Translations under genes and position numbers: made by a program
The notes under the pieces: generated by a model
Seen by the model: only the letters and a program-made list of their open reading frames with translations
Database searches by the model: none
Told to the model about the DNA's origin: nothing
Origin: Candidatus Asgardarchaeum abyssi
GTDB taxonomy: Archaea; Asgardarchaeota; Asgardarchaeia; Asgardarchaeales; Asgardarchaeaceae
DNA length: 12,879 nt
Assembly: GCA_040225955.1 (NCBI GenBank)
Contig: JBECUL010000056.1
Location: 1 to 12,879, forward strand
Reading direction: 5' to 3'
In this document: one piece after another, positions 3,249-12,879 of the stretch
Layout: each line of letters starts with the position of its first letter
Position numbering within the stretch: position 1 is the stretch's first letter

Positions 3249-3677
3249 TCACTTTTTGACAAAATCCTCAAGGAAAATGATATCAATATCAAGCGGTCTC
3301 TTATCAATTTCTCTTTGCAATTCTCTCTCCTTTTTAGCAAAAACAGCAGCTGCTTTTATCTTTTTAGCAAGCGCTATTACAAATGAATCCGCTAGCGATA
3401 TTGCTCGATAGCATTTAATTCTTCCTCCTTCTTGAGGTGAAACATATAGATTAATAATACACTCTGATTCATGTAACTCTTTAATTTTTGTGTCAGCCTC
3501 TTCTAAACCAAGATTTCTGCAGAGGATATAATATAACTCGGCTAGTGCAATATCTGTTGTGTAAACATCATGTTCACTACTTTGCGCTAATTCTAATGCA
3601 TACTTACCTATCTCTGTGCCATAAACAATCTCTACAAGTACACTCGCATCATAAACCAGCTTTTTTAAATTTTTCAA
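3249..3677 (-). CDS. vapC: PIN-domain VapC toxin
   Basis: LVYDASVLVE, IALAELYYILCR and ISLADSFVIALA supply the PIN acidic residues. Overlaps the upstream antitoxin. TTG 3677 with GGAGG upstream is preferred; GTG 3695 is possible. Confidence 0.88.
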   Translation of the reverse strand: MKNLKKLVYDASVLVEIVYGTEIGKYALELAQSSEHDVYTTDIALAELYYILCRNLGLEEADTKIKELHESECIINLYVSPQEGGRIKCYRAISLADSFVIALAKKIKAAAVFAKKERELQREIDKRPLDIDIIFLEDFVKK

Positions 3678-3909
3678 GACGCTCTTCCTCCTCACGTCTT
3701 AGTTCTTGTAGCTGTTTATACGCTTCTCTGATATCTCGTCCTTTGAGGCATCCAAAAAAACTCATTAACTTATCCTTATTTTTCCTTTTTCTTAATAGAA
3801 ATCTAATTGCTTCATCTATACTCACTTTTCTGCCAAGCTCTAATTGCAGTTTTGCTGCTAATTTTAATAGTCTGATTTTTGTATCTTCACCAACTTGTAT
3901 AGTAACCAT
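3649..3909 (-). CDS. vapB: VapB-type antitoxin (RHH/CopG-like)
   Basis: MVTIQVGEDTKIRLLKLAAKLQLELGRKVSIDEAIRFLL is a beta-alpha-alpha N-terminus, followed by a charged tail. ATG 3909 follows GGTGA. Directly upstream of and overlapping vapC. Confidence 0.82.
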   Translation of the reverse strand: MVTIQVGEDTKIRLLKLAAKLQLELGRKVSIDEAIRFLLRKRKNKDKLMSFFGCLKGRDIREAYKQLQELRREEEERLEKFKKAGL

Positions 3910-3920
3910 AATATCACCAT

Positions 3921-3945
3921 ATGTCAATTAACATAAAATGTCAAT
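3921..3945. promoter_or_regulatory. Array of ATGTCAA/TT(G/A)ACAT half-sites upstream of vapB; putative autoregulatory operator
   Basis: ATGTCAAT at 3921-3928 and 3938-3945, with an inverted one-mismatch copy (TTAACAT, 3928-3934) between them. Located between the TATA-like region and the SD of vapB. Confidence 0.5.
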
Positions 3946-4010: not shown

Positions 4011-4079
4011 TATTAAAAATCAGTGACCGGGATCATCATCATTGCAAAGCTCAGAATAACGGGCTCTCATCCCTTAATA
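4011..4079 (-). ncRNA. Archaeal box C/D 2'-O-methylation guide sRNA
   Basis: Minus strand reads GGGATGA (C, 4073-4067), GAGCCCGTTATT (12-nt guide), CTGA (D', 4054-4051), gctttgca, ATGATGA (C', 4042-4036), TGATCCCGGTCA (12-nt guide), CTGA (D, 4023-4020). It spans 54 nt from C to D, with a terminal stem TATTAA/TTAATA, a T-run after D, and a TATA-like AAAACATTTAAG about 25 nt upstream. It is a GC-richer island in AT-rich intergenic DNA. Confidence 0.85.
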
Positions 4080-4189
4080 GAAAGTATTAAACTTGTATTC
4101 TTAAATGTTTTCACGAGGCAACTAACTAAAACTTATTAAGTATTGTCTTATAATCGAAATAACGAATATCTTTAGAGGAGAAATTAAGC

Positions 4190-4475
4190 ATGTATCAAAA
4201 AATCATACCAATGTTTCTTATAGAAAATGTAGATGAAGCCATCAAATGGTATAAGGATGTATTAAATGCGAAGATCCAAGCAACAGACCCAGAAAATCCA
4301 CCATTTGAATGGGCATCTCTTTTGCTAAATGATGTTGAAATTATGTTTGCGGACAAGAGATCTGCGGTGAAATGGTATTCTGAAGATGTCCCAATAGGAG
4401 ATAGAATTTAAAGAGTTTGCAATAAAAGACCCTTTTGGAATTGTTTTGATATTTGCACAAACATTGAAGAAATAA
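4190..4475 (+). pseudogene. VOC/glyoxalase (bleomycin-resistance-like) family pseudogene with an internal deletion and frameshift
   Basis: N-terminal half MYQKIIPMFLIENVDEAIKWYKDVL... stops at 4411. The VOC C-terminal motif KEFAIKDPFGIVLIFAQ continues in the +1 frame at 4410-4475. The usual intervening strand-helix segment is missing. SD GAGGAG upstream. Confidence 0.78.
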
Positions 4476-7557: not shown

Positions 7558-7812
7558 TTGATTTCAGAAATTGTTGTTAAAGTTGGTAAGAAAGGTGAAA
7601 TATACTTTCCTAGCAAGTTTAGGAAAATGATTGATCTCAAACCCGGTGATAAGGTTAGGCTTAGAATCGAAGGAAAGAAAATTATTATTGAGAAAGAGAA
7701 GGATATTGAAGATCTCCTTGGAGATTATGTTCTGAAAATAAGTATTGATGAGGCTGAAAAATTAGTGAAGATGCCCAAAGGGAGGCAGGAATTATTGACT
7801 GAAAAAGAGTAA
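7558..7812 (+). CDS. AbrB/MazE/SpoVT-family antitoxin, probably with a 3' frameshift
   Basis: VKVGKKGEIYFPSKFRKMIDLKPGDKVRLRIEGKKIIIEK swapped-hairpin motif; GGTGA before TTG. An alternative frame from 7764 gives a more typical tail, SEDAQREAGIID* (stop 7800-7802). Confidence 0.85.
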   Translation: MISEIVVKVGKKGEIYFPSKFRKMIDLKPGDKVRLRIEGKKIIIEKEKDIEDLLGDYVLKISIDEAEKLVKMPKGRQELLTEKE

Positions 7813-9486: not shown

Positions 9487-11637
9487 TTATTTTACCTCCT
9501 TTCTTACACCGTATGTTTCATCATAAAATACTTCTACAATAGGGAATCCTCTTTCTACTGGTCTTTTAATAGAAACATCCATCCAGATCGGAATAGAAAC
9601 GGTGTATTCCTTTATTTCAGCAAATATTTTTCTCTTTTGTATATATGATATCTCTCTCCCTATCTTTTCATATAGTTTCTCTATATAATCCCTATAAATG
9701 CTTGGTATAACAAGTCTTGTGAATTCTTCTCTGAATTTAAGAAGTCTTTGAGCAAATTCATCATTCACAGGCCAAGAATACAGGAAGTTTGTATATTCAC
9801 TCCAAGTTTCTAGTAAGTTATATATCTCCCTTCGTTTTACTCGTGAGAGATGAGCTATTTTATCATATTCGTCTATCAATTGGAGCTCATCCGTCAATTC
9901 ATTTCCTTCTAACTCTTTCAAAAGATTCCAAGTATTTGTAACATCTTCCTTATCGTATGGATATCCCTTCTTAATATTTATTTCAGACGGAAAGACAATC
10001 CAAACGTTTACCTCCTCTGTTTTGTTCTTATACCTGTTTACTCTGCCAAATCTTTGAACAAGCGACTCTAAAGGCGCACATTCAGTAACCATAAAATCGA
10101 AGGAGATGTCAAGAGATACTTCAATAACTTGTGTAGCAACCAAAATGAAACTTTTCCCTTCTCTTATCCAGCTGTTAATTTTGTCCTCCTTTTCACATCG
10201 ATGTTTATAAATAAAACGAGAATGCAATAATTCTGTATTTAATTCTAACCCTAACTCTGATGTTAAGTTTCGTAGTTTTTTGAATACTTTTTGAGACTTT
10301 TCTACTGTATTGCATACTATAGCCATTCTAAATGGCTTTCTGCTTGATTTGTAAAGCTCAATAATATCTTCAACAATGTCTAAAACATCTCCCGCCACAA
10401 CTCTAAACATAACCCTTCTTCTGTTCTTAAATTCTTCATCTAGCCATATTTTTTCAACTCTTTCTAATAGTTTTTCAAAATGCTCTCTAAGTACAGATGG
10501 GAAAGTTGCGGACATTATGCATATTCTTAGATCATAAATCTGAGAAAATTTTTCAAGAAAGTAGGAAAGGATATATAACATATTCTGGGAAAAAGTATGA
10601 ACTTCATCGAAAATAATCACCGAGCCTCTTAAATGAGGACGTTTCATGAAGTATTTTCCTACCTGAAGAAATGTTAATAACAGCTGATCAAGCGTAGTAA
10701 TAATAACAGGTTTAACAAAATAAGAAGAGAGCATCAATTCTCTGAAATCGTTCTCTTCTTTTTCGTTCCCCCTCTTTATAGTTTCTACATCGGCATAATA
10801 GAAAAATTCTCCAACATTCTCTTTTCCAAAGAAAGCACAAAAGTCGTCATAAAAACTTTTTATTGAGGTAATTGTAGGTAAAACATAAATTATTCTTGAG
10901 CCTTTACTTATCGCATACGAGAGCGATGCTGCTGTCTTTCCCCATCCTGTTGGAGCTCGAATAAGTAAATTTGTATCAATTTTGCTTAAACTTAATTGTG
11001 TTTGAAGGTCTTTATTTCTAACTCTAAGTTTCTTCTTCTGGATTTTTTCTAGAATCCATGCTTTTAAATCTTTAACATTTTTATTCAGGTTGCTTATCTT
11101 GAAATTTGTCAAATTATTCGCTGAGAGGATATCTGCAAGTTTAAAAAGTCCATAAGTATCAACAAAATTAACCTTTGAGGAAAAATCAAGCTTAGGAACA
11201 ACTTTATATAGATTTCTTTGCCAATTTTTCATTTCATCATCAATCCACTCCTTCTTACTTTCAGTGGCCTCTTCTTTTACCCTTAACACGTCACTATCTT
11301 CTACTCTTGTGAGATATCCATGATGCTTAAGTATAAATAAAGGAAGAAGAGGATACTTTTCTATTTTTTCTTTGTCTTTTTCGAAAAGCATGAAAACCGA
11401 ATAAGGAGAGTGAAGAGGATTTGTTTTGTTATTTATATTCCAAGTATTCTTAAGCTTTCCCATGTCGTGATAATAACAAAGAGCTTTAGCAAATTCTTTG
11501 TATTCATGTAAATTATAGAATTCGAGAAAACAGAGAATAAATTTTTCACATTCTTTGATGTGCTCAATCAATTTTTTCCCTTTATGAGATTCTTTACTCC
11601 AAACTTCCCTTTCTAAATCGTTCAACATCGTTTGCAT
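9487..11637 (-). CDS. cas3: CRISPR-associated Cas3 (HD nuclease fused to SF2 helicase)
   Basis: HD domain: LIEH, YYHDMGK, HSPYS, KHHG, LADILSA. Helicase: APTGWGKT, FDEVH, MSAT, LLHSRF, VATQVIEVSLDI, QRFGRVNR. Start uncertain (11637, 11628 or 11625). Confidence 0.96.
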   Translation of the reverse strand: MQTMLNDLEREVWSKESHKGKKLIEHIKECEKFILCFLEFYNLHEYKEFAKALCYYHDMGKLKNTWNINNKTNPLHSPYSVFMLFEKDKEKIEKYPLLPLFILKHHGYLTRVEDSDVLRVKEEATESKKEWIDDEMKNWQRNLYKVVPKLDFSSKVNFVDTYGLFKLADILSANNLTNFKISNLNKNVKDLKAWILEKIQKKKLRVRNKDLQTQLSLSKIDTNLLIRAPTGWGKTAASLSYAISKGSRIIYVLPTITSIKSFYDDFCAFFGKENVGEFFYYADVETIKRGNEKEENDFRELMLSSYFVKPVIITTLDQLLLTFLQVGKYFMKRPHLRGSVIIFDEVHTFSQNMLYILSYFLEKFSQIYDLRICIMSATFPSVLREHFEKLLERVEKIWLDEEFKNRRRVMFRVVAGDVLDIVEDIIELYKSSRKPFRMAIVCNTVEKSQKVFKKLRNLTSELGLELNTELLHSRFIYKHRCEKEDKINSWIREGKSFILVATQVIEVSLDISFDFMVTECAPLESLVQRFGRVNRYKNKTEEVNVWIVFPSEINIKKGYPYDKEDVTNTWNLLKELEGNELTDELQLIDEYDKIAHLSRVKRREIYNLLETWSEYTNFLYSWPVNDEFAQRLLKFREEFTRLVIPSIYRDYIEKLYEKIGREISYIQKRKIFAEIKEYTVSIPIWMDVSIKRPVERGFPIVEVFYDETYGVRKEVK

Positions 11638-12268
11638 CCCACACAGCTATACCGTTTACCGTTTTTATCGGCTCTTTAACTTTAAATTCAACTTTAAAGC
11701 CTTGATAAAAGAAAGTGTTTAAATATAGCACTCTTAATATTTTGCCCCCCTTTTCTACATATGAAAGACCAGTAATGATATCCACTGGAATCATTCCTCT
11801 TGCTTCTGCTTTTTTCATAAACCTAGCATTGTTTTCGTTTTTAATGTCTTTTAGGAAATAGTCAGAAATTCCTCCATAAATGTCAAATTCAAAATCTCTC
11901 CTTTTGATTCTTCTTTTTAGTTCCATAATTAATTCATCTTTTGCATAAACACCAATTCTAAAACGTGGTTCGATTAGAAACTCAAAGTCTTCCACCGTTC
12001 TTATAAACATTTTGTTTTCTTCATCCCATGCCATTAAAGTGGCTTTTTCGGAAGCTATTCCTCTGAAATCGCATAATTCTGCCCCTACAGTAAGATTATT
12101 GTCTTTAGCAAAATCACATAATTCTTCTCTTTCTACACCAAATATTGCGCCAATAATCCCCCAGATAACTGTTGGAGGTGGTAAAAAATAACTTGATCTA
12201 AATTTCTTTGTTTCGTGTCGTTTAAAATGCGCTGTAAAAAAAGATATTAAGAAGGTATGTGACTCCAT
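11594..12268 (-). CDS. cas5: CRISPR-associated Cas5 (type I)
   Basis: N-terminal AHFK...RSSYFLPPPTVIWGIIGAIFG, EFLIEPRFRI and IYGGISD (G-rich loop). Immediately upstream of cas3. Confidence 0.92.
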   Translation of the reverse strand: MESHTFLISFFTAHFKRHETKKFRSSYFLPPPTVIWGIIGAIFGVEREELCDFAKDNNLTVGAELCDFRGIASEKATLMAWDEENKMFIRTVEDFEFLIEPRFRIGVYAKDELIMELKRRIKRRDFEFDIYGGISDYFLKDIKNENNARFMKKAEARGMIPVDIITGLSYVEKGGKILRVLYLNTFFYQGFKVEFKVKEPIKTVNGIAVWDANDVERFRKGSLE

Positions 12269-12270
12269 GC

Positions 12271-12879
12271 TTATGCACCTAATAGATACTTTGTGACTCC
12301 CTCTATTACCTCATCTATCTTTTGAGGACTAAGAACTTCAATCGATTCTAATATATCAACTTTCCTCTTAAGTTCTTCAATTCTTTCTTTTAACTCTTCG
12401 TTGTTTGATTTTTTCAGTTCTTCTTCGAGTTTCTTTATTTCCTCCTTGTATTTTTCAATTCTTAATTTAATCTCTTCATTTAATGCATGTTCAAAATCTA
12501 CTATCGTAATCCTTTCTTCATCTTCAAGAAAGCATCCTAAATCTTCAATTTTATCAAGATTTAAAACTACTTTTCCATTTTTAATCTTGTAATCTATATG
12601 GGCAAATAATGGAAGTAAGCGTTCTGTAGGTAAAATAACTACATAGTAATAATGTGGCTGATGTAAGTTTGTTGCCGACCTTGGGAATGTATATCTTTCC
12701 TTTAGTAATACTTCTAGAAAAGCTTTTAATCTACTCTTTCTTCCATAAGTTTTCTTAGAATTTTCAGTTGGCTCAAATGGTAAGTAATAGAATTTCTTTC
12801 CATTCTGCATTTCTGTCACTAATACTCATAGTTATCATTGCAGATATTGTAAATCAGATAAATTTTCTTTCCTATATTG
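12271..12879 (-). CDS. cas7: Cas7 (DevR/Cst2-like) C-terminal portion; reading frame interrupted near 12820; partial at the window edge
   Basis: Lies directly upstream of cas5. FYYLP...RKSRLKAFLEVLL...FPRSAT...P resembles the Cas7 I-A/I-B C-terminal helix region. The ORF frame is closed upstream of 12819, but the neighbouring frame reads NIGKKIYLIYNICNDNYEY* up to that point. Confidence 0.65.

Follow-up and report, generated by a model that had tools for sequence, protein, structure and literature searches.

Which RNA, if any, is modified with the help of the short intergenic element upstream of a vapBC toxin-antitoxin pair in Candidatus Asgardarchaeum abyssi? From the bare sequence this element had been read as a canonical box C/D guide sRNA with its own promoter, and the peptidyl-transferase loop of the 23S rRNA had been suggested as target of one of its guides. 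The element was analyzed within the window, i.e., the whole 12,879-nucleotide stretch of DNA, where the following features were located (C31 denotes the contig with a paralogous sRNA described below).

3249-3695, minus strand: vapC PIN-domain toxin gene (PF01850, E 2e-9)
3649-3909, minus strand: vapB-type antitoxin gene (PF02697, E 3e-5, slightly short of the curated cut-off)
3927-3945, minus strand: imperfect inverted repeat before vapB, by its sequence a possible antitoxin operator
4011-4019, minus strand: run of five U following box D, possibly a terminator, and 3' arm of a weak A-U stem with 4074-4079, by sequence
4020-4023, minus strand: box D, CUGA, by sequence
4024-4035, minus strand: 12-nt D guide, with C50 of tRNA-Glu/Asp as its best-supported target (tRNA-His C49, a 23S site or an orphan guide as alternatives)
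4036-4042, minus strand: box C', AUGAUGA, by sequence, same in the C31 paralog
4043-4050, minus strand: K-loop spacer, 8 nt, with a GC/GC mini-stem, the GC...GC being the same in the C31 paralog
4051-4054, minus strand: box D', CUGA, by sequence, same in the C31 paralog
4055-4066, minus strand: 12-nt D' guide, predicted to act on A27 of tRNA-Glu(UUC) and tRNA-Glu(CUC), from duplexes, energies and shuffles
4067-4073, minus strand: box C variant, GGGAUGA, by sequence
4098-4112, minus strand: BRE and TATA promoter-like element (TATA 4105-4100), putative, from its matrix score
4190-4474, plus strand: divergent glyoxalase/VOC-like gene (family by eye only), apparently broken by an internal deletion

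The four boxes C, D', C' and D and the two 12-nt guides were found again on the minus strand, running from 4073 to 4020, and the target sequences derived for both guides are exactly those originally written. From box C to box D the sRNA comprises 54 nt, where two unstructured guides of 10-13 nt in a total of 50-70 nt were taken as the expectation for the class. No stable fold was predicted (z 0.95-1.25), and the GC content of 50% stands out, the bins on either side having 17-27%. The D guide would be 9 nt long in a second register that the AUG repeat at C' permits. However, the element is not canonical, as its box C (GGGAUGA) has one mismatch to RUGAUGA. A G replacing U in box C may weaken the binding of L7Ae. 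Despite this single mismatch the GA dinucleotides of K-turn and K-loop are all intact. The proposed terminal stem is weak: it consists of six A-U pairs, offset by UUU, is missing from the predicted fold and is not kept in the C31 paralog.

The promoter was scored with a matrix trained on the upstream regions of this genome's tRNA genes. A BRE-TATA element of 9.4 bits is located 38 nt before box C, in agreement with the TATA-like promoter of its own that had been proposed, and BRE-TATA elements at -37 to -42 also precede four other sRNA candidates of the genome. The sRNA is indeed upstream of and co-oriented with vapBC, as the vapB-vapC pair starts 110 nt downstream, and it lies outside the ORF track: no ORF of at least 50 aa overlaps it, only a 38-aa antisense ORF. 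Four-box units of this kind occur eight times in the 2.6-Mb genome versus none in two order-4 Markov simulated genomes. The Rfam search that had been recommended did return C/D families with similar box spacing and consensus, sR5 (RF01304) and snoPyro_CD (RF00095), but the hits are weak (19.4 of 40 and 19.6 of 45 bits gathering, respectively) and the guides differ. Thus, the sRNA is a member of no Rfam family. Judged on the features testable here it is nevertheless one of the archaeal box C/D sRNAs, so that the assignment as methylation guide is supported at the level of sequence. As the genome encodes fibrillarin, Nop5 and L7Ae, the machinery genes are present as well, and we consider a real C/D sRNA gene very probable.

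Targets were scanned throughout the assembly and in the 43 tRNAs predicted from it, which were numbered after the tRNA alignment of Rfam. In both tRNA-Glu genes the junction of D-stem and anticodon-stem forms 11 bp with the D' guide, and therefore a tRNA, the last-named option of the original prediction, fits. With tRNA-Glu(UUC) there are 10 straight Watson-Crick pairs and a terminal G-U, and with tRNA-Glu(CUC) 10 Watson-Crick pairs and an internal G-U; the duplex energies for the two isoacceptors are -16.9 and -19.7 kcal/mol. In both cases the +5 pair is Watson-Crick and falls on A27, with which the anticodon stem begins, the unpaired base is +1, and the duplex stops before the intron at 37/38. 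Shuffled D' guides equal this score on any of the 43 tRNAs in 1.1% of trials (P 0.011). Nine straight Watson-Crick pairs have been given as the rule for significance (Dennis et al., 2015, PMC4644070), which the 10 straight pairs with tRNA-Glu(UUC) exceed with +5 included. In the genes of the window no cis target above 10 wobble-rich pairs was found. The 23S rRNA, most of the 16S rRNA and some tRNAs are absent from the assembly, which leaves room for a better target. Even so, A27 of tRNA-Glu is with good confidence the predicted target of the D' guide.

The four-box scan also detected a paralogous sRNA on the plus strand of contig C31 (C31:16446-16499; L063:4947-5000). From C through C' 33 of 38 nt are identical to the sRNA of the window, whereas the flanks are unrelated; its box C reads AGGAUGA. 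The D' guide of the paralog is one base shorter and its +1 G pairs with C23 of the tRNA, giving 11/11 pairs on the same A27 at -17.8 kcal/mol (shuffle P 0.004, which is not independent of the P of the first sRNA). In the assembly tRNA-Glu(UUC) is the only site with at least 10 straight Watson-Crick pairs to both D' guides. Since the composition of the C31 contig is typical of the genome and not outlying, a paralog is more likely than contamination, and the target is common to both either way. By its complementarity the paralog gives independent support for A27.

The D guide has its match in the T-stem of tRNA-Glu and tRNA-Asp, where it forms 9 contiguous pairs (8 of them Watson-Crick), or 11 with one bulge; in either register +5 falls on C50, and the duplex has an energy of -18.1 kcal/mol. 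With 8 straight Watson-Crick pairs it passes only under a relaxed rule for double guides. The A54 loop read by this guide is found among the tRNAs only in tRNA-Glu and tRNA-Asp. Shuffled guides matched tRNA-Glu equally well in 2% of trials and some tRNA in 19%; a match of both guides to a single tRNA arose in 0/3000. In Sulfolobus tRNA-Gly a guide has been reported to act on C50 (Wolff et al., 2020, PMC7668247), and two guides on one tRNA are rare in Pyrobaculum, with 4 families (PMC6009581). Taken for itself, C50 of tRNA-Glu/Asp as the predicted target of the D guide falls a little short of an even call. In both tRNA-Glu and in tRNA-Asp (L065:130-232, L066:116-218, L064:142-216) the T-loop carries A54 and G60, the near-universal U54 being replaced.

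A reading that shares this main mechanism and differs only in the second guide is that of a single-guide sRNA, with D' on A27 of tRNA-Glu and a D guide that acts elsewhere or is an orphan. We lean against it but take it as a serious possibility. Around 80% of the tRNA-targeting sRNAs of Pyrobaculum have one empty guide (PMC6009581), and the D guide of the C31 paralog differs from that of the sRNA. Moreover, rival sites of the D guide score alike: C49 of tRNA-His (-18.5 kcal/mol, 10 pairs including 2 G-U) and a site in domain II of the 23S rRNA of one relative, G011 (-19.8 kcal/mol, 11 pairs including 2 G-U). However, this 23S site varies among the relatives and fits poorly in most of them, and the low frequency of an equally good match of shuffled guides on tRNA-Glu itself also speaks for a second guide on this tRNA. 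The D guide of the paralog fits just one T-loop well, in a tRNA-Lys(UUU)-like gene with several introns (C46:15459-15596) that ARAGORN labels 'Stop'. It points there to C56, which recalls the guide-made Cm56 of Pyrobaculum, and a search for Trm56 in this genome, which is 93% complete, gave no gene.

The true targets might also lie in unassembled rRNA, either in the 16S beyond nt 400 or in the 23S away from A2451, with a tRNA-Glu match by chance. Archaeal guides mostly target rRNA, most of which is missing from this assembly: Rfam searches of the assembly gave no own 16S or 23S, and blastn recovered only the first 400 nt of the own 16S at the end of contig C110. In addition, shuffled guides equal the score on one 16S and 23S pair in 1% of cases, a frequency similar to that on the tRNA set. 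Against this, the D' guide reaches at most 9-10 pairs in 23 rRNA stretches of relatives, at scattered and non-conserved sites, at most 8 pairs in the own 16S fragment and 6 in the own 5S, and the change in the paralog improves the fit to the tRNA. Another sRNA of the genome served as control: in these relatives the same test placed it cleanly, with 11 pairs, on a conserved 16S site. If the D' guide had a conserved target in rRNA, it would thus probably have become visible. We therefore regard an rRNA target as improbable. The specific 16S segment offered earlier as an alternative did not hold, since the proposed site reads differently in the organism's own 16S fragment and no duplex of more than 8 pairs forms there.

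Two other RNA genes were observed on contig C78. The 5S rRNA gene (G000:C78:8532-8655, minus strand; L069:383-506) is circularly permuted: the 3' part comes first, followed by a UUU linker, and a long flanking stem has a bulge-helix-bulge, where cutting and joining would give a 121-nt 5S. A C/D sRNA is located directly downstream of tRNA-Trp (G000:C78:8279-8328, minus strand; L069:130-179); its D' guide matches the 5' end of the own 16S with 9 pairs and its D guide has a 9-pair match in the variable region of tRNA-Glu.

The closest relatives of this genome are found only at phylum level, with no genome of the same family. The boxes are kept in the paralog and in two strains at 99.5% identity, of which the latter are uninformative (the sole change in the sRNA is at 4048, in the K-loop spacer), but an exact pattern search gave no homolog in 399 other, distant genomes of the phylum and therefore no cross-species covariation. 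Only chance hits were obtained by blastn in 40 relatives, and a mismatch-tolerant search for the tRNA-Glu pattern in five relatives was swamped by them. Exact patterns in genome, metagenome and viral collections returned chance bacterial hits and the two same-species strains, and nothing viral. The metagenomes containing this DNA are marine, vent and sediment samples; the sequencing runs listed with it include no RNA runs, which has no bearing on expression. That the sRNA is a duplicate that is silent or decayed, or that its boxes stand together by chance, would agree with the non-canonical C box, the weak terminal stem and the sub-threshold Rfam scores, as well as with the redundancy with the C31 copy and a contamination estimate of 7.8%. 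Yet no such units arose in the simulated genomes, the promoter is at the expected distance, the boxes and the D' guide are kept between paralogs with unrelated flanks, and the contig composition is not outlying. Accordingly, decay or chance seems quite improbable to us.

Another possibility is given by the toxin neighborhood, namely that the guide is an accessory of the adjacent RNase toxins and that methylation of tRNA-Glu shields it from, or tunes, cleavage by VapC/HEPN. Both tRNA-Glu guides lie just upstream of RNase-type toxin-antitoxin pairs (VapBC and HEPN-MNT), with a co-oriented toxin domain 364 nt (VapC) and 320 nt (HepT-like, C31) downstream. Of the intergenic positions 1.5% are placed in this way, or 6.9% if orientation is disregarded, and of the other sRNA candidates 0/6. 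VapC toxins are reported to cut tRNA commonly, and a 2'-O-methyl group blocks RNases that use the 2'-OH. However, of the two cases just the one on C31 is independent of the way in which the finding was selected, and the two toxins belong to different families; the proximity is thus treated as a lead. The genome carries about 76 PIN, HEPN and HepT-like genes, and further VapC, HEPN-MNT and Cas genes are located on the contig of the window. RNase toxins usually cut tRNA at loop sites; A27 and C50 are in stems and away from these. The U run after box D and the operator-like repeat before vapB suggest separate transcription; the promoter score of vapB is weak (4.3 bits), and read-through from the sRNA is possible. 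Most likely the position beside vapBC just reflects a variable, toxin-rich region with no functional link, and a toxin accessory seems quite improbable.

Several further features of this region were noted. In the VOC-like gene the middle part is lost in this assembly, with a stop at 4411 and the C-terminal part in another frame, whereas strain L049 continues in frame. The window encodes cas3 and cas5 at 9487-12819, together with another cas-like ORF that is truncated at the end of the contig. Next to these there are a second vapBC, an HEPN-MNT pair, an ATPase of the AAA_14/DUF4143 type and, at 7558-7812, a lone antitoxin of the AbrB/MazE type. In a 650-aa protein encoded at 393-2345 an ABC ATPase domain and a GNAT domain are joined to a CxxC pair resembling a Zn-ribbon.

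Least tenable is the idea that the D' guide directs methylation of the equivalent of 23S A2451 and so modulates or silences ribosomes among toxins, which we judge extremely unlikely, as the G needed at E. coli position 2453 is present in 0/25 genomes of the phylum (A in 24, U in 1). The count of 9/12 matches to 23S 2447-2458 was right and the +5 rule in that register does fall on A2451, but a C·A mismatch is located at guide +7. Because 2453 is never G the duplex breaks there, leaving at most 5-6 straight pairs and -6.1 kcal/mol with the commonest loop type. The best case is one of the families nearest by fibrillarin (f14, G017), whose loop pairs 11/12 with two G-U and one C·A mismatch at -14.5 kcal/mol. 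The C31 paralog keeps the C at +7, its +1 G would clash with G2447, and its guide reaches -9.9 kcal/mol on the f14 loop versus -17.8 on tRNA-Glu. A better match of at least 10 nt elsewhere, which had been named as evidence against A2451, is thus given by tRNA-Glu. These data come from the 23S of relatives, the organism's own 23S being unassembled, and make A2451 unlikely. A lenient sRNA scan gave no guide revealing the organism's sequence at 2451-2455. Contigs of four samples with this DNA, compared with a relative's 23S loop, show at the 2453 position only A>T; they are unassignable to the organism, rare variants are dropped in them, and they were not counted as evidence. In the peptidyl-transferase loop of several members of the phylum (L011, L012, L013, L014) the equivalent of E. 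coli A2448 is a G, and the 23S of L017 has an apparent insertion right after the 2452 equivalent.

Overall, a stand-alone C/D sRNA guiding 2'-O-methylation of tRNA, at A27 through D' and probably at C50 through D, is the likely explanation for this locus. The boxes, the complementarity, the promoter-like site, the machinery genes and the paralog are observed, while we infer expression, RNP assembly, methylation and the purpose of the sRNA. In the established pathway L7Ae, Nop5 and fibrillarin form an RNP that places the 2'-O-methyl group by the +5 rule. Here, a stand-alone sRNA of around 55-60 nt would be transcribed from its own TATA promoter, L7Ae would bind the C/D and C'/D' kinks, and Nop5 and fibrillarin would then join. 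The guides would pair with unfolded or precursor tRNA-Glu. The D' guide would open the 5' side of its anticodon stem (A24-N34) for methylation of A27, and the D guide would probably bind the T-stem of this tRNA at C49-G57, where it reads the unusual A54, and direct methylation of C50, in tRNA-Asp too. Stiffer stems of the (pre-)tRNA at high temperature, the usual role, would likely be the purpose.

Similar systems are known from other archaea. tRNA-targeting C/D sRNAs make up about one third of the Pyrobaculum families and cover 23 tRNA positions (Lui et al., 2018, PMC6009581). The sRNA resembles these, especially the dual-guide sR46, sR61, sR123 and sR126, in its four boxes, guides of 11-12 nt, the +5 rule and the tRNA target, and the duplication with guide swapping between paralogs resembles the 'composite' sRNAs of Pyrobaculum (PMC6009581); however, it comes from another phylum and as far as Rfam shows its guides are unrelated. 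With the guide for Sulfolobus tRNA-Gly (PMC7668247) it shares a predicted C/D-guided methylation of C50 in the T-stem, but there the site was seen by mass spectrometry, whereas here it is predicted in tRNA-Glu/Asp with an A54 T-loop. Like the sR50/tRNA-Trp intron guide (Cm34, Um39; PMC7994747), two guides would act on one pre-tRNA and the pairing would open the anticodon arm. In difference to the intron-encoded sR50, the sRNA is stand-alone with its own putative promoter and both sites are in exons.

In a literature search no catalogue of C/D sRNAs was found for this archaeal lineage, and in a limited search no report of Am27 in archaeal tRNA. The finding is modest: an unannotated tRNA-modifying guide RNA and its paralog in a deep, uncultured archaeal lineage, with Am27 and Cm50 of tRNA-Glu as predicted sites, while the support for an RNA-guided hit on the catalytic base of the ribosome is mostly removed. 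Its importance would be much greater only if the closeness of the paralogs to RNase toxins proved functional. RNA-guided modification would then serve as an accessory antitoxin, for which the paralogs would be kept beside the VapBC and HEPN-MNT operons.
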